DNA of 64,000 bases from an uncultured Verrucomicrobiae bacterium (GCA_963841495.1 CAWJDJ010000019.1:41053-105052); one strand, 5' to 3'. Shown: positions 11,364 through 44,436, counted from the stretch's first letter. Notes: generated by a model not told the origin, from the sequence alone. A program made the numbers and translations.

Positions 11364-11712
11364 GCGACTCACAACTACGTTGCAACTCAACAGCTGCCCA
11401 TGGAGACCCCCGGTCTTTGTCGGAACGGCGGAGGATGTCGTCAGGAAGCTCAGGCCCGTGGACGGGCGTTCGCCGAGCTTCCGTACTTCGGGTCTCGCAC
11501 AGCCTCGGGATGTGACACTATCACCGTTCCACTCGGTCCACCGGCAGCGGTATGCCATTTACTGGAGATTGATGGACCGCGCAGGGAATCCTTGAGGTTG
11601 ATCCCTTCGATGCCCCACGGTTCGAAGGTGACGTGATTGTTGAGGATCTCGGCTGCACCTCGTTGGAATTGAGATTGACTTTTGCGGCTGCGGTGCAGCT
11701 CAATGCGCACTT

Positions 11713-11904
11713 ATGAGCGACTCTGAGGCGCCGAAGGGACCCGGCAAGGAGGCACCGTTGGCAGACCAGGAAAATGCCGCCAAGGCGCAGTCGGCGGCGG
11801 GCAGGGTGCAGATCGAGGATCTTCTTGATTTCTCATTCACCGAAGTCCTGCTCGAACGCCGCGTCATCCTCAACGGCTCCAGGTTCGGTTTGTCCTGCTC
11901 CTAG
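11713..11904 (+). CDS. Small hypothetical protein (63 aa); candidate precursor peptide of the downstream locus
   Basis: The ORF has high third-position GC like real genes here. It sits 21 nt upstream of the S26 peptidase gene on the same strand. It has an acidic/helical N-region and ends ...NGSRFGLSCS. No recognisable family and no obvious SD. Confidence 0.35.
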   Translation: MSDSEAPKGPGKEAPLADQENAAKAQSAAGRVQIEDLLDFSFTEVLLERRVILNGSRFGLSCS

Positions 11905-11924
11905 CCCTGGCATTCCAATCCAAA

Positions 11925-12437
11925 ATGGAGGGAACCAATATGATTTCTGAGACCGCCGCAACCGGGCTGAAATCCTACCATGTTGCCTTCGATTCCATGG
12001 AACCTGCGATCATGGCAGGTTCGGATGTGATAGGCGACCGATCCTACTATGCCAGGCACCAACCCAAGCGCTGGGATGTGGTCGTCTTTTCTGCTGCCCC
12101 ACCCGACGGTTCCCAATCATCCGATTCGGGCGGTCACTTCGTGAAGCGAATCGTCGGGCTGCCCAACGAAACAATCCATCTCAGTCCAAAAGGGCTCAGG
12201 ATCAATGGGGCCATGATGGCTGTTCCCGCCGCCCTGAAGGACCGCTTTTCGTGCTTCGAGTGCCACTCGGAATACAAATTTGGCGTCGAAGCGTTCACCA
12301 TTCCCGATGACAGCGTCTTCGTGATTGGCGACAACCGCGACGTCTACGTCTCGGACTCGAGGGAACTTGGGGCTGTCCCCATTCGAAATCTCGAAGCGCG
12401 CGTCGTCGCTACCGTGCAGATCACTCCGGTGACCTGA
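11925..12437 (+). CDS. S26-family (signal peptidase I-like) serine peptidase lacking an N-terminal membrane anchor
   Basis: Box B DSMEPAI (Ser), box D VKRIVGLPNETI (Lys) and box E GDNRDVYVSDSRELG. No hydrophobic N-terminal segment in the 170-aa ORF. Confidence 0.75.
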   Translation: MEGTNMISETAATGLKSYHVAFDSMEPAIMAGSDVIGDRSYYARHQPKRWDVVVFSAAPPDGSQSSDSGGHFVKRIVGLPNETIHLSPKGLRINGAMMAVPAALKDRFSCFECHSEYKFGVEAFTIPDDSVFVIGDNRDVYVSDSRELGAVPIRNLEARVVATVQITPVT

Positions 12438-12698
12438 CACGAGCATCCAAAGGCGCTCTTGCGCGACGCGCCGATTCGACATCGGTCTCTTCCGGTGATC
12501 CGAACAGGCATAGGGGAGGTTGGACGGTCGCCCAGGTAACAATGGCTTCTGTCCTTTTGATCGGGGGCACCATTGCCGATCCCGATCGCAGACCCTGGCG
12601 CCGGTCGCGGCGATGCAGGATTCACCCGCAAGGATCGCCTTTCTGCCGAGGCCATGTTGCAGAGTCCTCCAACAGCCGTCCGGGCTTCTGGGATCCCC

Positions 12699-13481
12699 AT
12701 GATCGGCAGTGCCCTGGAACAGCTTATCGCCCATATTGACCTGGATTTCTCGCTGCCCGCTTCGGAGGTTCCCCATGCAATCCGGAATCGCCTCCAGGCT
12801 GCCCTCCAAGCACCGGATCTCTACCTCGACTGCGCCCACCTGGCCTTGAGCCAGATGGCATTTATGCCCGACGCGCGTTTCCTCTTTCGAGATCCGGAAT
12901 CGCGCTACACGCTGCAAATGTTCTGCTGGCCGCCAGGCTTTGGAAACGAACCTCATCTTCACACGAACTGGACCGTTTCTGGCATCATGGCCAGCTCCCT
13001 CCTGATCTTTCGGAGCGCCGCCTCCGAAACCGATTGTCTTGCGTCAGAACCGCTGCTGGCGACCGCCGGCCAGGCCGGCGTCCTTATCCCGCCCCAGTTC
13101 CATTGTCTCCGTAATATCGGAGACGACTGCGCGATCACCTTTCACATATTCAGCGTCGACGCTGCTCACGATGAGAGGCTTCATTCGGAAGCGCGCGCGA
13201 TTTCCTCCACCCGGCGATTGGATGACGACGGAATCCTGGCCATCGCAGCCGTCGCGGCAAGGCATGGCGGCCCTCGGGCGATTGAAATTGTTCGCAACGC
13301 ATTTACTGCGGTCGCCAACGCCGCCAAACTCGACGCCGTCAAGCTGATGGTGAAACTCGATCCGCCGGGCGCCCTTCAAATGGCAAGGACCCTTTCGACC
13401 CTTGTGGGAGGACGCGATGGGGCCCGCCTGCTTCAGTTCGTTGAAAGGCTTGAAATCGCCGCTCACGACGGTTCGATTTAG
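12699..13481 (+). CDS. Cupin protein resembling cysteine dioxygenase type I, with a helical C-terminal extension
   Basis: FCWPPGFGNEPHLHTNWTVSGIMASSLLIF and IPPQFHCLRN match the CDO-type cupin metal-site pattern. The start is uncertain (TTG 12573, ATG 12654 or ATG 12699). Confidence 0.5.
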   Translation: MIGSALEQLIAHIDLDFSLPASEVPHAIRNRLQAALQAPDLYLDCAHLALSQMAFMPDARFLFRDPESRYTLQMFCWPPGFGNEPHLHTNWTVSGIMASSLLIFRSAASETDCLASEPLLATAGQAGVLIPPQFHCLRNIGDDCAITFHIFSVDAAHDERLHSEARAISSTRRLDDDGILAIAAVAARHGGPRAIEIVRNAFTAVANAAKLDAVKLMVKLDPPGALQMARTLSTLVGGRDGARLLQFVERLEIAAHDGSI

Positions 13482-13560
13482 CCTGGTTTCGCACTGGCGC
13501 CAGCCGAATCCGGATGAACCGAGTTCAAGCCTGATGGACGATTTCCGCCGAGGCACGGGC

Positions 13561-14397
13561 ATGTCGGAAAAGAATCTTCAGAAAGCGCTGATGCATCTCT
13601 ACGCGAACGTCGATCGATACAGTTCGTATTCCGAGGGCATCTTCGAAGAATTCGCGCTTTCTCCTTCTGAGAAGGATTCGCTCAAGCAGTTGATGACGTC
13701 GCAGCGAAGCGGATTGCTCCTCTTCAATGAGCAGTTGCATGGCAAACGGCGACGTCTCCTCCGGGATGTCCTGCCCTTGTCCGCGGAGCTGCTCGGCCCT
13801 AGACTCGAATCCCTGCTGGATGACTATCTGTCCTTCGAATCCGCCGAAGGCGCCCGCAATCCTGACGATACGATCCGATCCTTTGCGCAATACGCCGGCG
13901 CCCGGCTTGACACGGGCCCCGTTTCGCGGGAATTCGAGTTGATTCGATTCGAAGCCGTGCATGCCTCTGTATCGCTTCCGCTTCCTGCCACGACATTCAA
14001 GGCACGGGCCCCTCTTCCACTCTCCCCGGACCTGCGCTTGTCGCTCGCCGGCGACACGGCATTGATCGCATGTTCGTATGATGTTTTGGCGGCAATCAGG
14101 GTTCCTTCCCTGTTGCCGACACTCGATCGCCTTCCAAAACCGTTCTGGCTCTTCTTGTTCCAGGCAGCCCCGCCCGCCGCCGTGCGAACCCTGGAAGTCA
14201 CCGCCGGGTTGGCGGGACTTTTAAGCTTGTTTTGGAAGGGCCTGTCGCTTGCGGATGCCCTGCAGACTTTCGCATCCGCCACTCAGAGATCCGCCGCACT
14301 GGGCGCGGTTGAACGGCTCCTCCTGGCTGGGGTCCCCTTCCATTCATCCAGCCAGGGATCGCCTTCGGCATCCGGTGAATTCCAGGATCACTCATAG
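13561..14397 (+). CDS. DUF2063-like putative partner protein of the MNIO enzyme
   Basis: About 278 aa directly abutting and overlapping the DUF692 gene. The layout (helical N-domain, LPLSAELLGPRLESLLDDYL, C-terminal GLSLADAL segment) resembles DUF2063/HvfC-type partners. Assigned by context and weak motif resemblance only. Confidence 0.4.
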   Translation: MSEKNLQKALMHLYANVDRYSSYSEGIFEEFALSPSEKDSLKQLMTSQRSGLLLFNEQLHGKRRRLLRDVLPLSAELLGPRLESLLDDYLSFESAEGARNPDDTIRSFAQYAGARLDTGPVSREFELIRFEAVHASVSLPLPATTFKARAPLPLSPDLRLSLAGDTALIACSYDVLAAIRVPSLLPTLDRLPKPFWLFLFQAAPPAAVRTLEVTAGLAGLLSLFWKGLSLADALQTFASATQRSAALGAVERLLLAGVPFHSSSQGSPSASGEFQDHS

Positions 14398-15217
14398 GTT
14401 TGGCCTCCTTTACGACGACAGCTTCCGCGATGCCCTTCGCGGCGGTCGCGCCGGGTTGGATCTTCTCGAGATCATTCCGGACCGTTTCGCAGATGTTCAA
14501 AGCCCCGATCAGGTGCCGGAATGCCTGACCGCCATTCCGACGTTGTTCCATTGCCTGAACCTGTCTCTCGGCTCGGATGAACCCCTGGATCGATCCTACC
14601 TCCAACGTGTCTCCAGCCTCGCAAGGGTGCTCAAACCGCTTTGGACAAGCGACCACCTCGCAGTGACCCGGATCGACGGCGTCCAACTGGGACAATTGTC
14701 ACCGGTCAGGTTCACCGCCCCAGCCCTCGGCAGAATCTCCGCCAAGATCGACCAGGTGCAGAACGAATTGCGGATGCCATTCCTGGTCGAGAATATCGCC
14801 TATTATTTCACCATTCCAGGGGCCGATCTTTCCGAAAATGAATTGCTGCAAAACCTCGTCGAGAAGACCGGCTGCGGAGTGCTGCTCGACATTAACAATG
14901 TCGCCGTGAACGCAGCCAATCACGGCTTTGATCCTTACACTTATCTGCGCGAATTCCCACTGCACGCCGTTCGCGAGATTCATATCGCCGGCCATCGACG
15001 GCGTGGAAATGCCTGCATTGACAGCCATGGCGAGCCGGTGGACGACATCGTGTGGGACCTCCTGCAGTTTGTCTCGGCGCGGCTGGAATCCCTGAATGTC
15101 ATTCTGGAACGCGACCAGGACATTCCGCCACTTGAGGAACTCCTGCGCGAACTCGCAACGGCAAGGGACCGGGTGACCGCAGCCAGGGCCGGCCGACCGC
15201 CCGGTGTCCAGGCCTGA
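14375..15217 (+). CDS. DUF692 / multinuclear non-heme iron oxidase (MNIO, MbnB/TglH-like)
   Basis: TIM-barrel DUF692 signature blocks: LDLLEIIPDRF, FHCLNLSLGS, WTSDHLAV, PFLVENIAYY, GVLLDINNVAVNAANHGFDPYTYL, EIHIAGH and VILERDQDIPPLEEL. In-frame GTG at 14375; the ORF is open from 14249. Confidence 0.85.
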   Translation: MNSRITHRFGLLYDDSFRDALRGGRAGLDLLEIIPDRFADVQSPDQVPECLTAIPTLFHCLNLSLGSDEPLDRSYLQRVSSLARVLKPLWTSDHLAVTRIDGVQLGQLSPVRFTAPALGRISAKIDQVQNELRMPFLVENIAYYFTIPGADLSENELLQNLVEKTGCGVLLDINNVAVNAANHGFDPYTYLREFPLHAVREIHIAGHRRRGNACIDSHGEPVDDIVWDLLQFVSARLESLNVILERDQDIPPLEELLRELATARDRVTAARAGRPPGVQA

Positions 15218-16283
15218 TGCCGCCGCCGATCCCATGGAACCCAACCTGATGGATCCGTCGACGATTCGACCCGCCGCTCATGCGGTTCCCTGGCGCGGAT
15301 CACAGCTCCGGCATCCTTCGATGCCGTGCTGCCACGAGTTGACACACCTCGACATTCTGGAATTGGACGAAGCCCTGCGACATGTCACGTCGCATCGTTT
15401 CGACCCTGCAAGGCTCCGCAGGGAGCATTTTCCGCTCGGACGACTCGGTGACACCCTTCAGGCCATCGCCCGACAACTGGAGGTCGACACCGGTTTCTCA
15501 CTTATCCGGGGCATACCGGTTGAGCGTTACAGCCTGCACGACGCAAGCGTTCTCCTCTGCGGAATAGCCGCCCACTTCGGGCGGTTGATGCCGCAAAATA
15601 TCAAGGGCGAGATCATCAATCACGTTCGGAATTCCGGCTTGGCCGGACCTCTGACCCGGCAGCAGCGCGGATACCAAGGCGGGTCGCCCCTGCCCTTCCA
15701 CAGCGATTCGTGCGATATTGTCGGCCTGCTCTGCATCAGCGACGCAAAATCAGGCGGAGTAAGTTCCATCGCAAGTTCCTACGCAATACACGACGAAATG
15801 CTGAAGCAACGCCCCGCTTTGCTTCAGGCGCTCCATCAAAATTTTCACATCGATCGGCACGGAGAAAACCCGCCCGGAGCCCCCCCCTTCTATTCGACAC
15901 CTGTTTTCATGTGGCACGACGACCGCCTCTTTAGCCGATTCAATCCTGGCTATGTGTACTCGGCGCAGCGGTACGCCGAAACACCGCGACTGACACCGCT
16001 GCAGGACGATGCCATTGCGGAGCTCAGTCGGCTCTGCGCATCGGAGGAATTCAGATTTGAGATGCACCTGCGGCCGGGGGACCTGCAACTGCTCAACAAC
16101 AACGTCATTCTCCACTCCCGTTCCGCGTACGAGGACGACCGTGAATCCGGCAGGAGGAGGCATCTTCTCCGGGTCTGGCTCTTTACGGCTGCGATCAATG
16201 ACATACCGCCGCCGATGCGCGACAGGTACCGGGATATGGAAGCCTGGCAATCCAGGGCGCATCTGCCTCCACCGCCCGACTAG
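15204..16283 (+). CDS. TauD/TfdA-family Fe(II)/2-oxoglutarate-dependent oxygenase
   Basis: HxD facial-triad context PLPFHSDSCDIVGLLCI, distal His in NNNVILHSRSAYED, then RRHLLRVW. Alternative start ATG 15234. Confidence 0.8.
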   Translation: MSRPDAAADPMEPNLMDPSTIRPAAHAVPWRGSQLRHPSMPCCHELTHLDILELDEALRHVTSHRFDPARLRREHFPLGRLGDTLQAIARQLEVDTGFSLIRGIPVERYSLHDASVLLCGIAAHFGRLMPQNIKGEIINHVRNSGLAGPLTRQQRGYQGGSPLPFHSDSCDIVGLLCISDAKSGGVSSIASSYAIHDEMLKQRPALLQALHQNFHIDRHGENPPGAPPFYSTPVFMWHDDRLFSRFNPGYVYSAQRYAETPRLTPLQDDAIAELSRLCASEEFRFEMHLRPGDLQLLNNNVILHSRSAYEDDRESGRRRHLLRVWLFTAAINDIPPPMRDRYRDMEAWQSRAHLPPPPD

Positions 16284-16367
16284 AGGTCCTTGTCCACCCA
16301 TCGTCCCGCCTGCCCTTCTGCTCGGATCACAATCAGGCACAAGTGATGCCGCGCCCCGGCTATTGGA

Positions 16368-17315
16368 ATGCGATTGACACTGGAACAAGCCGTCGCCAAC
16401 GCCCGGCATGCCGGCTCCGCGCGCCGATTTCCCGCGAAAAATGATCCGCGAGTTCGGAACGGCATGGTGTTCTCCCAGGTCCTCCCCCGCTTTCTCCTCG
16501 CAAGAGGAACATCCGTCTTCACGCTCGGCTCATGCTTTGCGCGGAATCTTGAGGAGAAACTGGAGCATTTTTCCCTCCCGACCAGGACCTTTACAGCTCC
16601 AGAAGGCGAGCGGCCCGGGCGGCCGAATGGAATTCTCAATGAATACAATCCCGGCACCATTTGCCAGCGGGTCGAACATGCCCTGAAGGGAATCTCCTTC
16701 GGCGACCTGTGCATCGCCCCGGAGGGCGGAGGTTTCATCGACCTGCTGCTCCCGGAATATGTGACTCCCGCGACCAGGGAACGGCTGATGGCACGGCGGG
16801 CCGAGGTCGACAATATCTACAGGAGCGTGTCCGCTTGCGAGGCCGTCATCGTCACTCTCGACCTGGTGGAGGCGTGGTATGACAAGTCCGCCGGTCTCTA
16901 CCTCAATCGCGTTCCTCCAGCGGCGTTTCTTCTCGCGGATCGCGACCGGTTTGAAATGCACATCCTGGATGTCCAGGAGACCCTGGATCTCCTCGACCGC
17001 ATGGTCAACGCCTTCCGTGCGCTGGGCGTCACGAAGATCCTGTTGACCGTGTCACCGGTCCCCCTGGAGACGACTTACTCCGGCAAAGACTGCCTGACCG
17101 CCAATATTCAATCCAAGTCGGTTCTGATCGTAAGCTCGCACACGCTCTGCCAACGTCACCAGGAGGTCGACTATTTTCCCGGCTACGAAATTGTGACGTC
17201 CGCCGGCCCCGAATCCTTTCATTCCGACTCCATTCACGTCCTCGATGACGTGGTGGAGAAAGTGACCGACTTTTTGGTCGAGCAATACGCCAGGTCGCCG
17301 TCGGTCCCGCCGTGA
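16368..17315 (+). CDS. GSCFA-domain protein (SGNH-hydrolase-like, function unknown)
   Basis: Contains the eponymous motif FTLGSCFARNLEEKL near the N-terminus. 315 aa. Confidence 0.7.
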   Translation: MRLTLEQAVANARHAGSARRFPAKNDPRVRNGMVFSQVLPRFLLARGTSVFTLGSCFARNLEEKLEHFSLPTRTFTAPEGERPGRPNGILNEYNPGTICQRVEHALKGISFGDLCIAPEGGGFIDLLLPEYVTPATRERLMARRAEVDNIYRSVSACEAVIVTLDLVEAWYDKSAGLYLNRVPPAAFLLADRDRFEMHILDVQETLDLLDRMVNAFRALGVTKILLTVSPVPLETTYSGKDCLTANIQSKSVLIVSSHTLCQRHQEVDYFPGYEIVTSAGPESFHSDSIHVLDDVVEKVTDFLVEQYARSPSVPP

Positions 17316-17317
17316 CC

Positions 17318-17590
17318 TCATGACCGGACGGGTGGGCAGCCACCGTGCCTCGAAAGATACGCCGCGATGCCTGGAATCGAAGTCAGCATCTCGAACTCGG
17401 ATTCGTACCGGATCCGGACCCGGAGCGATTCCTCAACCGCGAGAATGACGCTCAACTGACCCAGGCTGTCCCAAACTGCGAGCTCATACATCCGTGTTTC
17501 GGGCCCGATGCCGTCCACGTTGACTGCAAGGGCCCCGGCCACCAGGGTCCGCGCCGCACTTACACTCCCGGGCAAAGGGTCTACCCGCAT
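17318..17590 (-). CDS. Acyl/peptidyl carrier protein (phosphopantetheine attachment site)
   Basis: 90 aa with LAVWDSLGQLSVILAVEE (DSL Ser attachment motif). Overlaps the stop of the upstream adenylating enzyme by 10 nt. Confidence 0.6.
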   Translation of the reverse strand: MRVDPLPGSVSAARTLVAGALAVNVDGIGPETRMYELAVWDSLGQLSVILAVEESLRVRIRYESEFEMLTSIPGIAAYLSRHGGCPPVRS

Positions 17591-19029: not shown

Positions 19030-19069
19030 TGGCGGCGCGGGGAGCCACGATCGCGACAGGAATTCATTG

Positions 19070-20884
19070 TCACGCTGCTGTCGGGTGTCGCTCAAGGTGT
19101 GACACGAAGAACCGTTCGACTGCGCATTGCGACCGAAGCCAGGATTGCGGATTTCGGAATATGTGACCTTCATCCTCGAATACATGAAGATCCACCGGGG
19201 TGGTGGGAGGCAGAAGACCGCGTAGGCGGGTAACCTGTCCGACCGGAACAACCTCGTCGCGCCCACCGCGAAGGATCAGCAGGGGGACCGTCACATCCGC
19301 TGCCGCCTTTTCCAAAGGCGCGATCAACGGATCGTCAAGGAGATGACGTCGCACCGGCGCCGTCACCGGGATGGATGCTTCAAACAGAGGCGCCACGAAT
19401 GCGCACGCTGCGAATTCTGTGCCTCGTCCAAGAACCTGCAGTGCCGGCACGGCGGCCAGGCTGCCGGCCAGAATCCCCAGGGTCCGGCACCCTTCGGCAC
19501 GCAGAGAGGACGCCAGATCCTGAATGGCGGAACGCAACTGCACGAAATGCGATCCGATCGGTTCCCGTCGCACTCGTCCCCGCCCAATGGCGCCGGGTCC
19601 GTTCAATGTCACCACGCTGTAGCCATCCAGGGCGAGGGCGCGCGCGATGGAGTAGAGAAGGTGGTGGAAGAAGAACGACTGAGCCCCTGCGACGAACTGC
19701 TGGTGCAATCGCGGCAGAAGCAGAATTCCGGCCCCCCGATTTTGCGGGCCGGGCAGTCTCAAATAGTCGTATTCAACGCCGCCCCTCGCGACAAAGCCAC
19801 ACCGGCACCTTTCTTGATCCCCGGTCACAAGGATTTCATCGGGCATCGAAACGCGCCGAATCCATCGGCCGTTATCCCCGCAAAGCACCTCAAGCTGGCC
19901 ATCGTGCCGCCAGCGGGGCATCTGATAGACGCCGGGCACGGGCGGGAGGAACCGCCACTCCGTTCCGTTTTTCTGTCCGATCACAAGCTGCCGTTCGAAC
20001 CCGCCCTCGGGGCTCCGTGTATCCGATGCTATGATGGCAAGTCGATCGCCGCCCGGATCAATCGAAAAGTCGAACACTTCCAATCCATCCGGGGACACCG
20101 GCCTTGCGGGCGCGTCCGGGGCAAGCGCCCAGACCCGGGTGCACGCTCCGTTCTCGTACGCGGCCAAAACCTCCCCGCAGCCCAACACGACAGCCTTCAT
20201 TCCCGGTCCGCCATTAAATCCGAAAGCGACCTGTTGATCCATCACGGTTCGGTTCTCAAATGTCGATAGATCGAACCGCACGATTCGCACGCGCCCGCGA
20301 TTGTCGGCGGCCATCGACCCAAGCACGACCGCCAGGTAATTTCCGCGCATCGACAGTTCCACCGCAAGAGGTTCACCAGTTTGCGGAAAGGAGCCCAACT
20401 GTCGGGCGCTTCGTCCATCGTGCAAATGGATGCACAACCCGCTTTCTCCATGACAGCCGTAGGCGGCAACCTCGGCGATCGCCGCGCATTCGACAGCCTC
20501 CACCATGGTCTCGACGCGATCGCCGACCCTCGCCTCCAGACGCCTCCCCGCAAGGCACCACAGGCGCCCGCGTTCATCGTACGCGAGGCCCTGGACGTTC
20601 CCGGCCATCGACGAAAGACGAAGAGCCCCGCTCTCGTCGCGGATCATCAACGTCGAATCGTGTGCAAAAGCCAAAAGGCGGCCACAGGCGCTCCACGCGA
20701 TCCGAATCAATCCCAGGTTACTGAACCTGAAGACTTCGGTGCACCGATCCCGATCCTCCAGCACAATGGAAACACCGGCATCCGTCCCCCCCGCGTGGGG
20801 CCTCACGATCGCGAAGGCGCTGGCGGCGTCCGCTGGGGACGGTTCAACCGCAAGATAATACGGCAGGACATCAGCGGGTTTCAC
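19070..20884 (-). CDS. Beta-propeller + alpha/beta-hydrolase protein (S9 prolyl-oligopeptidase/acylaminoacyl-peptidase-like)
   Basis: The N-terminal ~330 aa are repetitive and beta-rich. The C-terminal hydrolase fold has a relaxed nucleophile elbow LGILAGSLAA, an acid in RGGRDEVVPV and a His in FEDEGHIF. Confidence 0.55.
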   Translation of the reverse strand: MKPADVLPYYLAVEPSPADAASAFAIVRPHAGGTDAGVSIVLEDRDRCTEVFRFSNLGLIRIAWSACGRLLAFAHDSTLMIRDESGALRLSSMAGNVQGLAYDERGRLWCLAGRRLEARVGDRVETMVEAVECAAIAEVAAYGCHGESGLCIHLHDGRSARQLGSFPQTGEPLAVELSMRGNYLAVVLGSMAADNRGRVRIVRFDLSTFENRTVMDQQVAFGFNGGPGMKAVVLGCGEVLAAYENGACTRVWALAPDAPARPVSPDGLEVFDFSIDPGGDRLAIIASDTRSPEGGFERQLVIGQKNGTEWRFLPPVPGVYQMPRWRHDGQLEVLCGDNGRWIRRVSMPDEILVTGDQERCRCGFVARGGVEYDYLRLPGPQNRGAGILLLPRLHQQFVAGAQSFFFHHLLYSIARALALDGYSVVTLNGPGAIGRGRVRREPIGSHFVQLRSAIQDLASSLRAEGCRTLGILAGSLAAVPALQVLGRGTEFAACAFVAPLFEASIPVTAPVRRHLLDDPLIAPLEKAAADVTVPLLILRGGRDEVVPVGQVTRLRGLLPPTTPVDLHVFEDEGHIFRNPQSWLRSQCAVERFFVSHLERHPTAA

Positions 20885-20905
20885 AGCGGGATTCCAACCG
20901 TGTCT

Positions 20906-22633
20906 TCAACAACGATACGAGAACTCCGTCATGCTTTGCGGCCGCAATCGTGACCGATCCAATTTCCCGGCAGCCGTCCTGGGCAATGTCCGGGTGAATT
21001 CAAGGACTGCCAGACGCTTGTACTCCTGCATCGGCCACCGGTTCTCGACCACGGATGCCAGTTCCCCGGCGAGCTCCGGACCCGCTGCGGCCCCTGGATC
21101 AACGACAACGAAAGCCTTCAGCGCCGTCAGTCCCTGCTCGTCGGGTGCCCCTATGATGGCGCACTCCCGGACGCAGGGATGCTGAAGAAGCGCCAGTTCG
21201 AGCTCGGTGGGATTGACCCAATCGCCGCAACCGAGTTTCACCAGGTGATCCGAACGTCCGTGAATATGGTAATAGCCGTCCAGGTCGAAGCTGAACAGGT
21301 CACTCGTCACAAACCACCCGTCTCGAAAGGATTGTCCGGTCCGCCCGGGATCTTTCCAGTAACCTGTGATAATCATGGGGCCGCGCACTCGCAGCTTTCC
21401 GATCTCGCCCGGCTGCACGGGCCTTTCCCCTTCGTCGATCACCTCGATTTCCACTCCCTCCACAGGCCTGCCCACAGAGCCGCGCCTCGTCTCTCCCGGG
21501 CGGTTCGTAATGTAGAGAAAGCCGACTTCGGTATTTCCGTAGGAATCCAGCAATTCCACCCGGGAAAACCGCGTCCACCGATCCAACAGGGCGTCTGCGA
21601 GCGGTTCTCCGCCAGTCACCGCCAATCGAAGCGACTGGAGTTTGTTCGAAAGCTCGGGACGCGACACCGTATCCGCCAGAAATCGGGGCTGGGCAAACAG
21701 CAAACTGCAACGGTGGGCGTCGATAACTTCGGCGAGCGTCGCGCTCCCAGGCGACTCCGGAACCAGCGCGCACGCCGCGCCTTCAACAAACGGCATCAAA
21801 ATCGAGCAGCCCAACCCGTATCCTGTCGTCATTTTGGCCACGGAAATGACGCGATCGGCCGCGTTCAGTCCCAGGACCGGCAGCGCAAATCCAAAATACC
21901 CGTGCAGAATGTCCTGATGGCGGTGCACAATCAGCTTCGGTCGCCCCGTGCTTCCCGAGCTCAGGAGACCGTACGCCTGGCCATTGGGATTCCCGGAAAC
22001 AACATAGTCCGGTCCGCTCCGCGCCATGATTGCGGTGCTGAACTCCGAAGGCGTGGTCCAACCCAGTCCGGCCCCAACGACTCCGAGCATCCCGGGCAAA
22101 GACCGAAGTCCCGGCAAGCGTCCCGGCAACCGATCATAGGCGATCGTGAGGCGCGCGTCGCACTGTTGAGCCATGAAGAACGCATCCTCGGCCGGCAGCG
22201 CGGGATCCATGAGGATCGCGACCGCGCCGGCACCTGTGACGCCGAAATAGGCCGCCACGAGCGTGGCGCAATCGGGCATCGACAAGATAACCCGGTCACC
22301 AGGAACGATGCCCATCGAGCGCAGCCAGGCCGTGCAACGGCCCGCCATTTCACCGACCTGCTCATAGCTGTAGGTCTGCCGCTCGAAGTAGAGCGCGGGT
22401 TGCGACCCACGACCCTCACGGCAATGACGATGCAGCATCAATTCCGCGTGATTTACCGTGTCCGGAGATGACCCCACACGGCTGCAAAGGGCGACTACCG
22501 CGGCCGCTGCGGGGGTCTCATCGCGAAAGGACATAACGCTTCTCCGGCAGGTCGCCCATTCCCCGTCATGGGGCCAGGAACTGTAATCGGACCCATCGCG
22601 AGGTGGAAGCCCGGATTTGCCTGATCGATTCAT
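20906..22633 (-). CDS. Aryl/acyl-CoA ligase (AMP-binding superfamily, benzoate-CoA-ligase-like)
   Basis: Motifs LLSSGSTGRPKLIVHRH, TGYGLGCS, DSYGNTEVG, WFVTSDLF, GRSDHLVKLGCGDWVNPTELE and LPRTAAGKLDR. ATG at 22633 lies 4 nt after the stop of the upstream OMT gene. Confidence 0.85.
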   Translation of the reverse strand: MNRSGKSGLPPRDGSDYSSWPHDGEWATCRRSVMSFRDETPAAAAVVALCSRVGSSPDTVNHAELMLHRHCREGRGSQPALYFERQTYSYEQVGEMAGRCTAWLRSMGIVPGDRVILSMPDCATLVAAYFGVTGAGAVAILMDPALPAEDAFFMAQQCDARLTIAYDRLPGRLPGLRSLPGMLGVVGAGLGWTTPSEFSTAIMARSGPDYVVSGNPNGQAYGLLSSGSTGRPKLIVHRHQDILHGYFGFALPVLGLNAADRVISVAKMTTGYGLGCSILMPFVEGAACALVPESPGSATLAEVIDAHRCSLLFAQPRFLADTVSRPELSNKLQSLRLAVTGGEPLADALLDRWTRFSRVELLDSYGNTEVGFLYITNRPGETRRGSVGRPVEGVEIEVIDEGERPVQPGEIGKLRVRGPMIITGYWKDPGRTGQSFRDGWFVTSDLFSFDLDGYYHIHGRSDHLVKLGCGDWVNPTELELALLQHPCVRECAIIGAPDEQGLTALKAFVVVDPGAAAGPELAGELASVVENRWPMQEYKRLAVLEFTRTLPRTAAGKLDRSRLRPQSMTEFSYRC

Positions 22634-22637
22634 GGTG

Positions 22638-23816
22638 TCACTCGATGAAAGGAGTGCGCCGGGAGAGAGGCCAACCGGCGACCCTCGGCGTCGAATTCGC
22701 CCCACACGTCTCGTCGGTCTGAGGTTGTGTCTCGTTGGAGCCCGTCTGCGCCATCGAATCGGCTTGTAACTCCATGACGTTGATCGCCGTTTCAGTCCGC
22801 ACAAGCCGCGCGAGAGCGAGTCCCGCCTTTTGAAAGAGGCGCTCGTACTCCAGGAGAGTCCGCTCACGCCCGGTCGTCATCACCAGCATATTCAAATCGG
22901 TCATGTGGATATCCGAGAGAAGATCGTCGCGAACGGATGTCGCGCCGGGAAGGGATTCCGGTACCGCCCGCTCAATGACGAGGACCCGACGGTGCGGTGT
23001 CAAAACGGTTCGACAATTGCCAAGAATCCTGCACGCGCGCTCGTCGTCCCAGTCGTGGAGAACGCGTGAGAGTATGTAGGCATCACCGCCCACAGGGACC
23101 TCAGCCAGGGCATCGCCGCAGGTGAACACGCACCGGGATTGCAGGCCGGCCTCTTCGATCCGCTGCTTCGCCCTCTGGGCGACGTCCGGGAGATCGTACA
23201 CAACACCCTGGGCCTCGGGATTGGCCTGCAAAATGCCGATCAGCAAACTCCCATTCCCTCCGCCCACGTCGACGATTCTCTTCAATTCCGAGAACGAGTA
23301 GCTCTTGAGCAGGTTCTCGATATAGGTGCGCGTGAAGCCGGCCATCGCGGCATCAAAGAGGTTTGCATACTCGGGTTGTGCCGCGCGGTACTGCCAGAGA
23401 TCCATGCGATAGCGATGCTCAAACGCGCTCTCGCCGGTGCGGATGCTGTGCATCACATCGCTCCACGCATCCTGGTGCACCTTTCCAAGCATCAACAAGG
23501 CCCAATCGTGGAGCGAGCCCGCCTGGTTCCTGCGAAGGGTCGCACCCAATGGCGTGAGCGAAAATCGCTGCTGTTCGTCCCCGGCAAGAATTCCCTCCGC
23601 GGCAAGCGCCCTCAGCACTCGATAAAGCGGTTGCGTCCGCGTTCCGGTTGCCTGGGCAAGCTCCTCACTACCCTTGGGTCCATCAGACAACAGATCCGGA
23701 ATATCAAGGCTGACGAAGACATGGATGGCCCTTGATAACCAGGAAGCCTCGATCAACCGCACCATAAGCGCGGATGCCTGGCGGCTCGAATCCTCCGGTT
23801 TGCCAGACACAGTCAT
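22638..23816 (-). CDS. SAM-dependent O-methyltransferase (Methyltransf_2 type with N-terminal dimerisation/winged-helix domain)
   Basis: VDVGGGNGSLLIGIL (SAM motif I), VVYDLPDV, LSRVLHDWDDE, and an N-terminal wHTH-like ELAQATGTRTQPLYRVLRALA. Confidence 0.85.
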   Translation of the reverse strand: MTVSGKPEDSSRQASALMVRLIEASWLSRAIHVFVSLDIPDLLSDGPKGSEELAQATGTRTQPLYRVLRALAAEGILAGDEQQRFSLTPLGATLRRNQAGSLHDWALLMLGKVHQDAWSDVMHSIRTGESAFEHRYRMDLWQYRAAQPEYANLFDAAMAGFTRTYIENLLKSYSFSELKRIVDVGGGNGSLLIGILQANPEAQGVVYDLPDVAQRAKQRIEEAGLQSRCVFTCGDALAEVPVGGDAYILSRVLHDWDDERACRILGNCRTVLTPHRRVLVIERAVPESLPGATSVRDDLLSDIHMTDLNMLVMTTGRERTLLEYERLFQKAGLALARLVRTETAINVMELQADSMAQTGSNETQPQTDETCGANSTPRVAGWPLSRRTPFIE

Positions 23817-23859
23817 TCTCTTGTCGCATTCCTCCGACCCGGGTGCGCCTGAATTGGAC

Positions 23860-25602
23860 TCAAGGAGGGCCCGCCGCGAGTTCTGGAATAGGAACCTGAA
23901 TTCGATTGGACACTCCAGCCTGGGGTCTCATGGGAACCTTTGTATCGACGTAAAATCCCTCCATGACGAGCACGTCGATCGAGGAGCGAAGATAGGTGAC
24001 CAGCGCGTCATAGGGAGACTCAACAATCGGATCGCCGGCCAGGTTGAACGAGGTGTTCAGCAACATCGGAAATCCGGTCCGGATTTCGAATGCCCGCAAC
24101 AGCGCGCGCACGAACGGTTCCTTCCCGTCAGGGACGGCTTGAACCCGCGACGATCCATCAACGTGGACGATGGCCGGGAGAGCCGACCGAAACTGGGGAC
24201 GCAGGCGGGTTGCCAGCAGCATGTACGGTGAAGACTGCTCCAATTCAAAGTACTTCACCTGCGCCTCCTCCGTCACCACGGGAGCGAAGGGCCGAAATGG
24301 CTCACGACCCTTCAGCCGGTTCAGCCGATCTTTCATCCCGGCGTCACGCGGATCCGCCAGAATGCTTCTGTGGCAGAGCGCGCGGGGCCCGGTCTCCGAC
24401 CGGCCACGCAACAAACCGATGATCCTGCCTTCGGCAAGATCCGCCGCCATGCGCTCCGCAAGTTCCGGGTTGCCTAGACGCCTCGCCTGGAGTCCGAAAT
24501 AGTCCAGCCATTCCTCGATAACCGTGTCCCCGTAACTTGGCCCCAGAAATGGCAGGGTATCCGCGCCGCGTCGGAGTCGTCTGAAGGCCTGATGGAACGT
24601 ATAAAAGGCCGCTCCAATGCAAAGGCCGTCGTCGCCGGCCGCCGGAACAACATGAATCCTCTGAAATCGTGTGTCCGCCAGGATCCGGCCGTTCAACTGG
24701 CAATTCAGAAAGACGCCTCCGGCTCCACAAAGTGCCCGATGCGATCCGGCAGGATTGAGGGCGTTGAGAAGGGCAATCATGTACTCTTCGAGGAGGTGCT
24801 GTCCGGTTGCCGCAATGTCCGCTGCCCTCCCCCGGGCGAATCTATGCCAGGGCTCGCCCGAATTCTGCCATGTTCGATCGACATCCGTCAGACCCGTCTC
24901 GAACGTCAGGAAAAACTGCAGGTCCTCAATCGCGGGAATCCGTGTTTCAAGAAGCGACTTCCCGTAGGCCGCCAATCCCATGGTCTTGCCTCCCTCGCGC
25001 TCGCCAAACCCGCTGAGATACGTGAATTGCTCGTACTTGTGGCCAAGGCTGATCTGCTTCTTTCTGTCCACCTCCGTCATGTAAGGCAGCAGGAACGAAT
25101 TCCGTCGCGTCATTCTCGCAAGGCCGAAGTCCTGCAGCCTTCGGTCGATGAGTTCGATGCCATCGCCCGAGCCCACATAGACGCTCTCCGCCTCGACACG
25201 ATGCCCGATGATGTCACCCGACCCGTCCGCCACAACAATCATGGCGGCGTCCAAATCCGACGTGCAGTAGGTGGACCAGGCGTGGCAATCATGGTGGCCG
25301 ACTCCCAGAACCTCGAGCTGGGGAGCGGCAAGAGCATCCCGCAACTCGTCCCGCAGAAGATGAATCACCCGGTCAATTTCGACATTGGTGTAGCTGATCC
25401 CGGCAATGGCCAGGTCCCCGGCGCGGATTCCCGCAGTATCAAGGACAGCCTTGATCGACTTCAATGGCAGTTCCGGTGAATTGGAATGCTTGCGGCGATC
25501 CAACCGTTCCTCGGCGATTTGAGCGATGAGTTGCCCATCGCTCACCAGCGCGGCCCCCCGATCATGTCCTAAATGCACCCCTAAGGAATGTTGTCTCGGC
25601 AT
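23860..25602 (-). CDS. NodU/CmcH-family carbamoyltransferase
   Basis: 580 aa. GHDRGAALVSDGQLIAQIAEERLDRRKH at the N-terminus and C-terminal NTSFNLAGDPIVESP are typical of carbamoyltransferases. Confidence 0.9.
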   Translation of the reverse strand: MPRQHSLGVHLGHDRGAALVSDGQLIAQIAEERLDRRKHSNSPELPLKSIKAVLDTAGIRAGDLAIAGISYTNVEIDRVIHLLRDELRDALAAPQLEVLGVGHHDCHAWSTYCTSDLDAAMIVVADGSGDIIGHRVEAESVYVGSGDGIELIDRRLQDFGLARMTRRNSFLLPYMTEVDRKKQISLGHKYEQFTYLSGFGEREGGKTMGLAAYGKSLLETRIPAIEDLQFFLTFETGLTDVDRTWQNSGEPWHRFARGRAADIAATGQHLLEEYMIALLNALNPAGSHRALCGAGGVFLNCQLNGRILADTRFQRIHVVPAAGDDGLCIGAAFYTFHQAFRRLRRGADTLPFLGPSYGDTVIEEWLDYFGLQARRLGNPELAERMAADLAEGRIIGLLRGRSETGPRALCHRSILADPRDAGMKDRLNRLKGREPFRPFAPVVTEEAQVKYFELEQSSPYMLLATRLRPQFRSALPAIVHVDGSSRVQAVPDGKEPFVRALLRAFEIRTGFPMLLNTSFNLAGDPIVESPYDALVTYLRSSIDVLVMEGFYVDTKVPMRPQAGVSNRIQVPIPELAAGPP

Positions 25603-25680
25603 GTCCGGGAATCGATTGACACTCTGTCCTGTCCAGGCCTCCCTGTGGGTCCTTCTCCAACGCCAGGCTTCCGGACAACT

Positions 25681-26721
25681 TCACATTTGAACGACAATCC
25701 GCTGCGTCTTTCCGGAGGGGCTCGTCTTCAATTCCTCGAAAAGGCCCTCCAGGGGGATGAGCTTGGAAATCAGCGGCTTCAGATTGACGGCCCCGTTCGA
25801 TAGCAGGTCGGCGGCTTGCCTGAAATCCTGGTCGGTATTATTGGCGGAGCCTGTAATCGTGATTTCCTGGTAGTGGATCGCATTCCAGTCAACCTGCAGA
25901 GGCTCGGAAGGGTGCAAGGACGCATACAAAATGATCCGGCCGGTGCGCGCCACCATCCCCAGCGCCTGCTCGCCCGCCTTCCTGAAGCCGGCCGCGACAA
26001 TGACGACGTCCGCTCCGCGTCCCTCGGTGCGGTCCTTGACAAACTCAATGGGATCCGTGGTTCGAGCGTTCACCGTGAAGTCGGCTCCCAGCGTCTGTGC
26101 GAAACCCAGTCGCGCGTCATCGACATCGCTAACGATCGTGCAGGCCCCCTCGAGTTGGGCGAGAAGAAGGTGAATTGTCCCCATCGTCCCGGCTCCCAAA
26201 ACAGCCACCGTGTCTCTGGATGAGATCTGTGCCCGGTGGATGCTGTGCAAGCAACATGCCAAGGGTTCGATCAAACTTGCCTCCTGCAGCTCGACGTGTT
26301 CGGGCAGTTTCACGACATGGTCGATCGGCACGGAAACAAATTCTGCGAAACCTCCGCCCACAATCTTGAAATCGGAATCGGAGCGGGATTTCCCCAGCTC
26401 GAGGCAGATGTTGTTGCTGCCCTTGCCACAATAATAGCAGCGCCCGCACCGTCTCATGACGTCGACGGCGACGCGGTCTCCGGGCCTCACGGCGGATTGG
26501 CGCTGATCCGCCCACTCGACGATGCCGGCAAGCTCGTGGCCCCCGATGACCGGGTAGTGCGGCAGGCCGCCCGAGAACAGCCGACGTTCCATTGTGCAGA
26601 TCGCAACCGCCTTGGACCGGACAAGAACTTCTCCTGGCGCCGGTTCGCAGCACTTGATCCATTGTACCCCGGCAGTCCGCGGGGCCGTTATGACGAAGGC
26701 CCTCATGGTTTTCGCGGCCAT
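25681..26721 (-). CDS. Zinc-dependent medium-chain dehydrogenase/reductase (threonine/sorbitol dehydrogenase-like)
   Basis: GHELAGIVE (catalytic Zn), RCGRCYYCGKGSNNIC (structural Zn) and AVLGAGTMG (Rossmann). Start candidates ATG 26721 or 26706; the ORF is open to 26787. Confidence 0.85.
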   Translation of the reverse strand: MAAKTMRAFVITAPRTAGVQWIKCCEPAPGEVLVRSKAVAICTMERRLFSGGLPHYPVIGGHELAGIVEWADQRQSAVRPGDRVAVDVMRRCGRCYYCGKGSNNICLELGKSRSDSDFKIVGGGFAEFVSVPIDHVVKLPEHVELQEASLIEPLACCLHSIHRAQISSRDTVAVLGAGTMGTIHLLLAQLEGACTIVSDVDDARLGFAQTLGADFTVNARTTDPIEFVKDRTEGRGADVVIVAAGFRKAGEQALGMVARTGRIILYASLHPSEPLQVDWNAIHYQEITITGSANNTDQDFRQAADLLSNGAVNLKPLISKLIPLEGLFEELKTSPSGKTQRIVVQM

Positions 26722-26805
26722 CGAAATCCTTTTCTCAATTGCTCGTTCGAGCCGGCACGTCGTGAGATTGGCAGGAGGCCGCCTCACCTTCGCGGCATCC
26801 GGCCG

Positions 26806-27049
26806 GAGCCTAAGGCAGGCTTCGGTTGCGCGTCAACGAGGTGCAAATGGCCCGCGGCGATCCCGGTTCTCCAATCACGCCGCCGCTCCACCGGGCCCGT
26901 TGATCGTACCGCTTTTGCGCGAGGTCCCGCGTCTGCAGGATTGGCTCGACCGTCATCCCGCGCCTGCGGGACGGGAATGCTCCGGTCTCGCCGCCTCGGC
27001 CTCGCACAAAATCCCTCGTCGCAGGCCCTTCCCACTTATCAGACGGGCT
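26806..27049. repeat. Copy M1 of a ~270-bp palindromic MITE-like repeat family (one arm degenerate)
   Basis: Shares the core gcgagg...cgaccgtcatcccgc...gggacggg.atgctccggtctcgccg..tcggcctcgcacaaaatccctcgtcgcag and the terminus tcagacgggct with copies at 28848, 50048, 54405 and 56050. Confidence 0.7.
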
Positions 27050-27221
27050 AAGCCGTAAACATGCAGTTGGGAGGGAAATGATTGCGCCGCAGATTTCCGG
27101 GCAAGACGAGGAGTGAGCGAGGCGCGTATCGGAACGGAGATACGTAACGAGCGAACGACGAAGCTCTTGCCCGGAAAGATCCAGCAAGCACGACCGATCC
27201 AACTGCATGGTTACGGCTAAG
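27047..27221. other. Long three-tier hairpin (~170 nt) overlapping the stop codon of the 27217..28803 gene
   Basis: Outer stem ctaagccgtaaacatgcagttgg / ccaactgcatggttacggctaag (21 of 23 bp paired). Middle stem gatttccgggcaaga / tcttgcccggaaagatc. Inner stem cgtatc / gatacg. Confidence 0.6.
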
Positions 27222-44231: not shown

Positions 44232-44436
44232 GAGGTCTGCCTTGCTGAGTCTATCCGATAGCAACACGGGCGCGGCAATTCAGGTCCCGAGGGGTAAAAT
44301 GGATCAAAACCGGGACAAAATGGATAAGTCGTTGTGATCCTGAGCGTTCGCTGGACTGTTAGTTGCTCAATTATGGCACTTTGCGACGAACAGCGCACCG
44401 AAGGTTCGACGGGCAACGCTAAAACTCCGTAATCGA

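Follow-up and report, generated by a model that had tools for sequence, protein, structure and literature searches.

A conserved, rare gene cluster predicted to release a small metabolite from the C terminus of a ribosomal scaffold peptide

In a 64,000-nucleotide stretch of DNA from an uncultured Verrucomicrobiae bacterium (GCA_963841495.1, CAWJDJ010000019.1:41053-105052; hereafter the window, with positions counted from its first letter), we observe 14 tightly packed genes at 11713-26787 that place a multinuclear nonheme iron-dependent oxidase (MNIO, DUF692) beside a small open reading frame (ORF), two peptidases, a cupin, a set of tailoring enzymes, and an adenylation enzyme with a carrier protein. 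The two convergent operons are one conserved, co-inherited cluster, and their clustering is far beyond chance. Comparison with homologous loci supports an MNIO-dependent pathway derived from a ribosomal peptide that is real, conserved, rare and undescribed in the searchable literature. With a probability of roughly 0.6, the cluster would turn the invariant L-(S/A)-C-S at the C terminus of a ribosomal scaffold peptide into a small, heavily tailored metabolite, a reading in which we infer both the product and the order of the steps.

Layout of the cluster

By ORF calling, seven of the genes lie on the plus strand and seven on the minus strand, and the two operons meet stop to stop across a gap of 2 nucleotides (17316-17317). 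The partner-protein and MNIO genes overlap by 23 nucleotides, the MNIO and TauD genes by 14, and the adenylation-enzyme and carrier-protein genes by 10. For the cupin, the partner protein, the adenylation enzyme, the aryl-CoA ligase and the dehydrogenase, the longest ORF starts upstream of the start that homologues support; both are given here.

11713-11904, plus strand: candidate precursor peptide, 63 amino acids, with leader EDLLDFSFTEV and C-terminal L-S-C-S
11925-12437, plus strand: soluble, anchor-less S26 signal-peptidase-I-like Ser/Lys peptidase (PF10502, TIGR02227)
12699-13481, plus strand: thiol-dioxygenase-like cupin (structure model with Foldseek, and profile; longest ORF from 12573)
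13561-14397, plus strand: predicted MNIO partner, DUF2063/HvfC-like (PF22106 in orthologues; longest ORF from 13402)
14375-15217, plus strand: MNIO (DUF692) oxidase of a distinct clade (PF05114, 256 bits)
15204-16283, plus strand: TauD-family Fe(II)/2-oxoglutarate oxygenase (PF02668, 116 bits)
16368-17315, plus strand: GSCFA-family protein of the SGNH-hydrolase clan (PF08885, 135 bits)
17318-17590, minus strand: stand-alone carrier protein, DltC/ACP-like (PP-binding, 17.8 bits; Ser motif)
17581-19029, minus strand: stand-alone DltA-like amino-acid adenylation enzyme (TIGR01733, 201 bits; longest ORF from 19266)
19070-20884, minus strand: S9-family β-propeller and α/β-hydrolase oligopeptidase/exopeptidase, 604 amino acids (structure model; marginal Pfam S9 match)
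20906-22531, minus strand: aryl-acid:CoA ligase-like adenylating enzyme (TIGR02262, 303 bits; longest ORF from 22867)
22638-23816, minus strand: S-adenosylmethionine-dependent O-methyltransferase, aromatic small-molecule type (PF00891, 155 bits; PF08100, 50 bits)
23860-25602, minus strand: carbamoyltransferase, NodU/TobZ/GdmN type (Carbam_trans_C, 204 bits; Carbam_trans_N, 117 bits)
25681-26721, minus strand: Zn-dependent medium-chain dehydrogenase, threonine-dehydrogenase-like (ADH_N, 85 bits; ADH_zinc_N, 82 bits; longest ORF from 26787)

An earlier, sequence-only reading of the window had described 14 genes here, and ORF calling recovered every one close to where it had placed them; the intergenic gap that it put at 3 nucleotides measures 2. 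Direct Pfam and NCBIfam matches confirm the DUF692, TauD and AMP-binding assignments on which that reading had staked its case, along with those of the S26 peptidase, GSCFA protein, O-methyltransferase, carbamoyltransferase, Zn-dependent dehydrogenase, aryl-CoA ligase and DltA-like enzyme. Its other calls also stand, on different grounds that are detailed below: a peptidase without an anchor (Ser/Lys boxes kept, no hydrophobic N terminus), a cysteine-dioxygenase-like cupin (fold and invariant three-His site, despite the absent Pfam match), a propeller-S9-like hydrolase (fold and invariant triad), a DUF2063-like protein (through its orthologues, the window copy having no direct match) and a carrier protein (sub-threshold in Pfam, held through an invariant serine motif). 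Catalytic motifs are intact in all of the cluster enzymes that we checked.

Conservation across homologous loci

The same gene set recurs at about 20 diverged homologous loci, whose proteins share 45-77% identity with those of the window. Thirteen or 14 of the genes are present in L001/L004, L002, L005, L006, L007, L008, L013, L014, L020 and the P0039 locus, in at least four gene orders or orientations, and the genes outside the set differ in every locus. In L001/L004, from a Korobacteraceae metagenome-assembled genome (MAG), the O-methyltransferase, aryl-CoA ligase, S9, dehydrogenase and carbamoyltransferase genes lie upstream of, and co-directional with, the block that runs from the precursor to GSCFA, and only the carrier-protein and adenylation-enzyme genes are convergent. 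The adenylation enzyme, carrier protein and GSCFA protein have moved jointly to the other side in L002, L013 and L014, the tailoring genes are divergent in L008, and L020 shows a further order with transposases on its flanks. Conservation of the neighbors around homologous MNIOs, on which the sequence-only reading depended, is thus what we find, through rearrangements and across two phyla.

The cupin and S9 families occur almost only in this cluster family, on contigs that overlap those of the MNIO clade. The former has 52 members, all at least 47% identical, and the latter 40 proteins, with 88 representatives at E ≤ 1e-3 among 1.84 billion proteins. Walking in reverse from S9 homologues on contigs outside the MNIO list, we recovered the aryl-CoA ligase, O-methyltransferase, carbamoyltransferase and S26 genes, the LSCS-ending precursor and, wherever the contig was long enough, an MNIO with two partner-sized genes.

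The named hosts comprise Korobacteraceae (Acidobacteriota) along with two Acetobacteraceae/Rhodopila MAGs. When the cupin profile was run against 185,579 species-representative genomes, only two loci came back, so the taxonomic range is poorly sampled. The flanks of the L020 copy (11993-14845 and 19120-21121) hold DDE transposases (IS66 and others) as well as an integrase of phage type. These mobile flanks, taken with the presence of the cluster in MAGs of both Acidobacteriota and Acetobacteraceae, suggest that it is horizontally mobile. Most cluster genes of L007 (6887-18013) are broken across frames, and the carbamoyltransferase gene of L003 is split in two (948-2684); the breaks probably reflect indels from long reads or assembly and not decay.

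A family of candidate precursor peptides

Across the related loci we find 17 distinct small ORFs, 31-64 residues long where a start codon can be assigned, and all 17 end in L-[SA]-C-S followed by the stop codon. One is present in every locus with DNA upstream of the S26 gene, directly before the S26-cupin-partner-MNIO genes; the P0039 locus and two JGI loci of a sister cluster type (type II, described below), which came without DNA, lie outside this count. The 63-residue peptide is the only ORF of such kind in the 64-kb window, and it has no match in Pfam/NCBIfam annotation.

Precursors of the window's own cluster type (type I) share the leader motif (E/D)LL(D/E/N)F(S/E/K)Fx(E/D)(V/A/I/L). Their N terminus is hypervariable in sequence and length, the spacer between leader and core varies from 11 to 17 residues, and the invariant positions in 13 aligned sequences are L38, F40, F42, L60, C62 and S63. 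At the C terminus only four residues are conserved: a second Cys, which yields a CxxC-like C-L-(S/A)-C, occurs in 8 of the 17 and is not invariant, and 15 of them have G, C, S or A just before the core Leu. Judged by eye, the precursors have no signal-peptide-like hydrophobic N terminus. A conserved leader and core beside modifying enzymes are the mark of a peptide made on the ribosome and modified after translation (RiPP), and with both in place these ORFs appear to form a real precursor family.

Signal peptidase I favors small residues at positions -3 and -1. In most precursors the end reads small-Leu-small|Cys-Ser and would therefore match this rule. L018 carries two tandem precursor-like ORFs (140-223 and 238-438), both ending in LRN(D/Q)LSCS; no other precursor has a non-small residue (here Q or D) before the Leu. 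Some copies of the cluster thus carry what appear to be multiple precursors.

The MNIO, its partner protein and the cupin

The MNIO matches PF05114 with 255.8 bits (cut-off 25) and falls below all five curated subfamily cut-offs of the NCBIfam equivalogs, with scores of 231 against 310 for BufB, 193 against 360 for HvfB, 108 against 400 for ApyH, 64 against 325 for MbnB and 43 against 600 for ChrH. BufB and HvfB are the nearest families; among solved structures, 3bww (137 bits) is followed by TglH (82.6 bits) and then MbnB. The motifs FHCLNLSLG, SDHLAV, VENIAYY, LLDINN, IHIAGH and ILERD, which we take to be those that carry the metal ligands, align with 3bww. Some 45 proteins at 52-71% identity form a clade of their own, and the rest of a 5.8-billion-protein collection lies at or below 43%. 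According to the MNIO literature, BufB/HvfB and TglH act on Cys, and since these are the nearest relatives, the invariant Cys of the precursor is the likely target.

The gene for the partner protein always lies directly upstream of the MNIO gene and overlaps it. Although the window copy has no match at E ≤ 1, five of six orthologues match PF22106 (NGO1945_C), with a best E of 1e-6, and a weak HvfC_C match is on record for the L003 orthologue. From these orthologues we predict a DUF2063/HvfC-like partner whose C-terminal domain is of the RiPP recognition element (RRE) type. Profiles of the partner and of the GSCFA protein returned only noise against PDB sequences (MarR, MutS2, gallinacin; E > 0.01).

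The cupin has two parts, a cupin domain of about 160 residues and, C-terminal to it, a helical bundle of about 85. It has no Pfam match in the window (CDO_I, 12 bits against a cut-off of 23), and sub-threshold CDO_I matches appear in 18 of 44 homologues (best E 0.0025). The PDB matches of the family profile are thiol dioxygenases only. An AlphaFold2 model built from the 44 homologues, with a mean predicted local distance difference test score (pLDDT) of 92, has thiol dioxygenases at Foldseek ranks 1-17 (E 1e-7 to 1e-5, TM about 0.6 on the target), with 3-mercaptopropionate, cysteine and mercaptosuccinate dioxygenases as its top matches. His86, His88 and His135, which make up the three-His site, and His149 are invariant in the 44 sequences. 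On this model, the protein is predicted to have a thiol-dioxygenase fold with a three-His site. His149 belongs to a motif T147-x-H149-x-F151, in which Phe151 presumably occupies the position of the Tyr in the Ser-His-Tyr catalytic triad of cysteine dioxygenase. The five-helix C-terminal bundle (residues ~176-256) is confidently predicted, has no counterpart in the matched dioxygenase structures, and may be a docking or peptide-binding domain.

Two soluble peptidases

The S26 gene always follows the small ORF. Its product matches PF10502 with 85 bits and TIGR02227 with 88.9 bits (cut-off 47), and the boxes SMEP, KR(I/V)(V/I)GLPGE and GDN...DSR, which correspond to the Ser/Lys boxes B, D and E, are invariant in seven orthologues. 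By eye we see no N-terminal hydrophobic segment, only about 20 polar residues before the SMEP box. The enzyme thus looks like a signal peptidase in its catalytic boxes and not like a canonical membrane signal peptidase.

For the S9 protein, the Pfam match is marginal (23.0 bits against 22.6). Its AlphaFold2 model (pLDDT 86) contains a full β-propeller and an α/β-hydrolase domain, and over near its whole length it matches puromycin hydrolase, acylaminoacyl peptidase, dipeptidyl peptidase IV and S9 carboxypeptidases in Foldseek (E 1e-19). Ser475, Asp543 and His574 are invariant in 34 sequences.

Tailoring and activating enzymes

The TauD enzyme is closest in structure to FrbJ, a small-molecule hydroxylase (156 bits). 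The nearest structures to the two-domain carbamoyltransferase are GdmN, NovN and TobZ, all O-carbamoyltransferases of small-molecule hydroxyls; TobZ is named as such in the structure-search output itself. The O-methyltransferase, a class I enzyme with a dimerization domain, is nearest to 6c5b, CalO6, DtpM and MmcR, relatives that act on small molecules. The aryl-CoA ligase has as its best structures anthranilate-CoA ligase (261 bits) and benzoate-CoA ligases, and its gene lies directly upstream of the S9 gene across all loci. The Zn-dependent dehydrogenase, present in L001, L006 and L008 and not found in L002 or the P0039 locus, is an accessory member. A GMC oxidoreductase gene lies near the cluster in the P0039 locus.

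The adenylation enzyme scores 201 bits with TIGR01733 and 157 with DltA, whose equivalog cut-off is 560, and its best structures are the module-2 adenylation domain of LgrA and DltA. It keeps the equivalents of D235 and K517 (the α-amino and ATP-lysine positions) and an FCGE motif. The specificity positions, D-L-(V/A)-S-F-F-T-L-F-K, are near-invariant and form a bulky pocket; we assume both this residue mapping and the link between FCGE and DltA. Pocket and motif suggest that the substrate is a small amino acid. The carrier protein reaches 17.8 bits with PP-binding (Pfam cut-off 20.8), and its serine motif WDS(L/F)GQL is invariant. Among all 14 products, Pfam and NCBIfam found no Condensation or Thioesterase match, and the adenylation enzyme and carrier protein would appear to be an accessory aminoacylation module and not the core of the pathway.

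In the GSCFA protein, the GSCF motif is invariant, and in most loci its gene adjoins the carrier-protein/adenylation-enzyme pair. The family is in the same clan (SGNH) as DltD, and its function is not known (PMC9487903); in the searchable literature it is found only in detoxin-like nonribosomal peptide synthetase (NRPS) clusters, where its role is not known either. The clan shared with DltD and the adjacency to the pair suggest an analogy with DltA, DltC and DltD.

Type-II sister clusters

Loci of the second cluster type comprise L009 (99-11365), L021 (3396-9975 and 10001-16085) and the two JGI loci without DNA. Compared with the window, their S9 proteins are 49-57% identical, and the aryl-CoA ligases, O-methyltransferases and carbamoyltransferases about 60%, 56% and 70%, respectively; the S26 gene is present in one or two copies and the carbamoyltransferase gene in three of the four loci. 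An MNIO is found in three of four (L021 and the two JGI loci, each with two partner-sized genes), and L009 reaches its contig edge first. L021, the only one with DNA for the MNIO region, has an MNIO 35% and a cupin 25% identical to the window's, and a barely detectable partner-like protein (E 0.23). Where DNA exists, the precursors have a different leader and end in ...GCLSCS. The core common to types I and II would thus consist, from these comparisons, of the LSCS precursor, S26 peptidase, MNIO and partner, cupin, aryl-CoA ligase with S9 protein, O-methyltransferase and carbamoyltransferase. Two deep cluster types with the common core sequence CLSCS suggest an old, selected function and not a one-off.

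TauD, GSCFA and adenylation-enzyme genes are not present in the type-II loci, one of which keeps a PP-binding gene. In varied combinations, these loci have instead an ATP-grasp L-amino-acid ligase (LAL_C2), a radical-SAM enzyme, a glycosyltransferase, aldolases, BBE and GMC oxidases, and an IlvD/Edd-family dehydratase. That an ATP-grasp ligase takes the place of the adenylation enzyme, carrier protein and GSCFA protein suggests an exchangeable aminoacyl-delivery module and supports the idea that the trio adds an amino acid. The dehydratase lies in or beside the cluster in loci of both types (L001, 14864-16597; L009, 12430-14109; the two JGI loci); none is found among the scanned ORFs of the window (the cluster, its immediate flanks and ten large downstream ORFs), and it may be an accessory member.

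Beside the type-II cluster of L021, at 17726-21662, is a second, unrelated MNIO system with a 69-residue ORF, a 291-residue MNIO (26% identical to the window's), a partner-sized protein of 289 residues and a 660-residue B12-binding radical-SAM enzyme.

A proposed pathway

In the pathway that we propose, the partner protein would use its RRE-like domain to bind the LL(D/E)F(S/E)F leader and would present the C terminus to the MNIO, which would oxidize the penultimate Cys. By homology with BufB and HvfB, the product of this step could be a sulfur-retaining heterocycle of the 5-thiooxazole or oxazolone-thioamide type; a carbon excision like that of TglH is an alternative. That a thiol-dioxygenase fold accompanies the MNIO suggests that the sulfur of this Cys, or that of the MNIO product, is oxygenated; the cupin would convert the Cys-derived sulfur to a sulfinate. 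The soluble S26 peptidase and the S9 exo- or oligopeptidase would then excise a C-terminal fragment, with a cut at (G/C/S/A)-L-(S/A)|C-S freeing a unit derived from Cys-Ser. Two soluble peptidases, a four-residue core and tailoring enzymes with small-molecule relatives all point to such an excision, which is also the logic by which 3-thiaglutamate, mycofactocin and pyrroloquinoline quinone are obtained from ribosomal peptides. The fragment would be tailored by the FrbJ-like hydroxylase, the O-carbamoyltransferase, the CalO6/MmcR-like methyltransferase and the Zn-dependent dehydrogenase, with the hydroxyl of Ser, or one newly introduced, as the plausible site of carbamoylation. The anthranilate/benzoate-CoA-ligase-like enzyme would activate an aryl or heteroaryl carboxylate for coupling. 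Finally, the DltA-like enzyme would load a small amino acid on the carrier protein for transfer by the GSCFA protein, in the manner of DltA, DltC and DltD, a delivery role that the ATP-grasp L-amino-acid ligase may take in type II. No transporter or exporter is seen in any annotated copy of the cluster, so the product may act inside the cell or leave through an unlinked exporter.

More tentatively, the cluster could define a new class of small molecules. Such compounds would be built from Cys-Ser or Leu-Xaa-Cys-Ser by an MNIO and a peptide-directed thiol dioxygenase, excised by a cytoplasmic signal-peptidase homologue and an S9 enzyme, joined to an aryl acid and a carrier-delivered amino acid, and carbamoylated, methylated and sulfur-oxidized (sulfinate or heteroaryl). 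We hold this doubtful in its full form. If true, the metabolite could be a new pharmacophore or cofactor, and both the GSCFA family and, within natural-product biosynthesis, a soluble signal peptidase would gain a first function. An attempt to name the product by analogy with carbamoylated or O-methylated metabolites (cephamycin, novobiocin, sulfazecin and others) was rejected, as no known scaffold fits Cys-Ser together with this enzyme set.

Several points weigh against the excision of a small metabolite as laid out here. All of its chemistry, namely the product, what the MNIO does, where the peptidases cut and in which order the steps run, is drawn from sequence and structure, and most of the evidence comes from metagenome contigs, some of them frameshifted (L007, L003). 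The carrier protein, the window's cupin and the window's partner protein are all below Pfam thresholds. With Phe in place of the triad Tyr, the cupin may be something other than a dioxygenase. If the MNIO builds a thiooxazole on the (S/A)-Cys amide, S26 could not cut at the same bond, which means that either the MNIO chemistry differs here or S26 cuts elsewhere. The tandem precursors of L018 appear to have Q or D at -3, residues that signal peptidases disfavor. Lastly, the cluster holds no aryl-acid biosynthesis genes to supply the ligase. An attractive possibility that we considered is that the ligase may activate an oxazole-4-carboxylate made by the MNIO.

Alternative explanations

The cluster could instead make a metal-binding peptide of the bufferin or methanobactin kind, with thiooxazole or oxazolone-thioamide ligands, in which case the product would be the leader-trimmed peptide decorated by the other enzymes. 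The MNIO does lie closest to BufB (231 bits), HvfB (193 bits) and the HvfB-like 3bww, and a second Cys creates a CxxC-like C-L-(S/A)-C in 8 of 17 precursors. Yet the score falls short of both the BufB and HvfB cut-offs, that second Cys is not invariant in a peptide with only four conserved C-terminal residues, and a thiol dioxygenase would destroy a thiolate ligand. There are also two dedicated peptidases to account for, and the nearest relatives of the tailoring enzymes are all small-molecule enzymes, although a NodU-like carbamoyltransferase does act on the peptide in the std RiPP cluster (PMC13174530). Most MNIO precursors, bufferins included, carry Sec signal peptides (PMC12452194), whereas by eye those described here have no such N terminus, and the annotated copies of the cluster have no exporter. 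On balance we regard a metal-binding peptide as unlikely.

We consider it quite improbable that the small ORF is not a substrate at all and that the MNIO, cupin and TauD enzyme act on a free or carrier-tethered amino acid (Cys, Ser) in a non-ribosomal pathway. A stand-alone adenylation enzyme and carrier protein do adjoin TauD and GSCFA, the relatives of TauD and of the other tailoring enzymes act on small molecules, and the window's partner protein has no Pfam match. Against these stand the matches of the partner orthologues to the RRE-type NGO1945_C domain and the small ORF itself, which is kept in every locus with DNA there, is always followed by the S26 gene, and retains an invariant leader and LxCS end despite its hypervariable N terminus; moreover, type-II clusters without the adenylation enzyme keep the precursor, MNIO and cupin. 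Least probable by far is the juxtaposition by chance of two unrelated clusters, an MNIO RiPP operon and an acyl- or aminoacyl-tailoring operon. The halves lie on opposite strands in the window, and the Zn-dependent dehydrogenase is not in all loci; however, the genes co-occur in all adequately long loci, in reshuffled order and in both Acidobacteriota and Acetobacteraceae, and in size the small S9 and cupin families resemble the MNIO clade. Because the set is conserved around MNIO loci and the reverse walk from S9 leads back to the MNIO, S26 and precursor, we reject a fortuitous juxtaposition.

Relation to known systems

Bufferin (BufA/B/C) and HvfABC systems, in which an MNIO and a DUF2063 partner convert Cys to a 5-thiooxazole (or an oxazolone-thioamide), share with this cluster the MNIO nearest in sequence, a partner whose orthologues here match NGO1945_C, and a Cys-containing substrate. 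The window's MNIO differs in being below their cut-offs and in a clade set apart by an identity gap (52% to 43%). Here the partner gene precedes that of the MNIO, the precursor has no signal-peptide-like N terminus and only an LxCS core, DoxX and export genes are absent, and 11 extra enzyme genes are present (thiol dioxygenase, two peptidases, ligases, carrier protein, carbamoyl- and methyltransferases).

The pearlin/3-thiaglutamate pathway (TglA, TglB, TglHI, TglF, TglG), with TglH as the second-nearest solved MNIO, shares the scaffold-peptide logic: as Ting et al. reportedly described in 2019, the C-terminal Cys of a scaffold peptide is remodeled by the MNIO and its partner, and proteolysis then releases the small molecule. 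In contrast, Pfam and NCBIfam find no PEARL/LanB-like aminoacyl-tRNA ligase among the cluster products, the Cys-Ser is gene-encoded, and the Cys is penultimate, not terminal. The peptidases differ (S26, S9), and a thiol dioxygenase, aryl-CoA ligase, adenylation enzyme with carrier protein, carbamoyltransferase and O-methyltransferase are added.

A stand-alone DltA-like enzyme with FCGE, a small carrier protein and an adjacent SGNH-clan protein recall DltABCD. Unlike that system, the cluster has no DltB (MBOAT), its GSCFA protein is of a different family from DltD, its DltA score is below the cut-off (157 against 560), and its setting is biosynthetic and not that of the cell envelope. Goadvionins, lipolanthines and pheganomycin also join a ribosomal peptide to blocks delivered by a carrier protein or an ATP-grasp enzyme, and type-II clusters do have an ATP-grasp ligase. 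They differ in that no polyketide or fatty acid synthase and no GNAT transferase is found here, the ribosomal share is apparently 2-4 residues, and the core chemistry would be that of an MNIO and a thiol dioxygenase. The std cluster of Streptomyces thermodiastaticus, a RiPP cluster with an MNIO and a NodU-like carbamoyltransferase (PMC13174530), is the only report of such a pairing in the searchable literature. In that cluster Lys is N-carbamoylated by a carbamoyltransferase with a fused S8/S53 peptidase, the MNIO hydroxylates homocitrulline, and there are also a YcaO-TfuA pair and a core SNKEWQE (PMC13174530); none of these features is present here.

The MNIO is below all five cut-offs, and the cluster has neither a PEARL ligase nor Sec signal peptides nor condensation or thioesterase domains; by membership it is therefore not a bufferin, methanobactin, pearlin or NRPS cluster, although its parts probably work like those of each. 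The searchable full-text literature holds no description of the gene set, and the MNIO landscape paper makes no mention of Acidobacteria, S26, TauD, GSCFA, signal peptidase, carbamoyl or AMP-binding/adenylation partners. The sequence-only reading had seen here the best candidate in the window for an undescribed RiPP or RiPP/thiotemplate hybrid, one that matched no pathway known to it. That no description was found agrees with its claim of novelty, and its RiPP part is strengthened by the precursor family and by the single conserved cluster. The thiotemplate part stands insofar as an adenylation enzyme and carrier protein are present; without condensation or thioesterase domains, and exchangeable as it appears, the pair would be accessory to the pathway.

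MNIO enzymes currently supply new peptide chemistry, and every subfamily characterized so far has given a new reaction. In this cluster, the MNIO is accompanied by enzymes that we have not found reported for RiPPs: a thiol-dioxygenase-like cupin, an anchor-less signal peptidase, the pair of S9 protein and aryl-CoA ligase, and the trio of DltA-like, DltC-like and GSCFA proteins, which could reveal the first function of a GSCFA-family member. The invariant four-residue core makes the system tractable, and one 15-kb fragment with one 63-residue substrate should suffice for reconstitution. The hosts, uncultured Acidobacteriota and Acetobacteraceae of acidic soils and peat, are organisms whose natural products are almost unknown. 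We see in the cluster a strong, well-delimited target for natural-product enzymology, not in itself the answer to a long-standing question.

Flanking regions of the window

Genes on either side are unrelated to the cluster. To the left are an NAD kinase, a LacI regulator and a Uma2-family nuclease, the last (putative restriction endonuclease-like, 10782-11363) lying directly upstream and marking the left boundary; to the right are an apiosidase-like/DUF5060 protein and an esterase. A promoter and terminator scan of 11000-27500 gave fewer sites than shuffled controls and says nothing on operon structure. The G+C content of the cluster is 0.59-0.62, against about 0.65 upstream, and it falls to 0.54-0.57 around 30-34, 36-40 and 46-48 kb of the window. 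Further downstream, a DDE_Tnp_1 transposase gene (36733-37881) adjoins an ORF of 2086 codons (38007-44267) whose product has Laminin_G_3 (concanavalin-like) as its only Pfam match.

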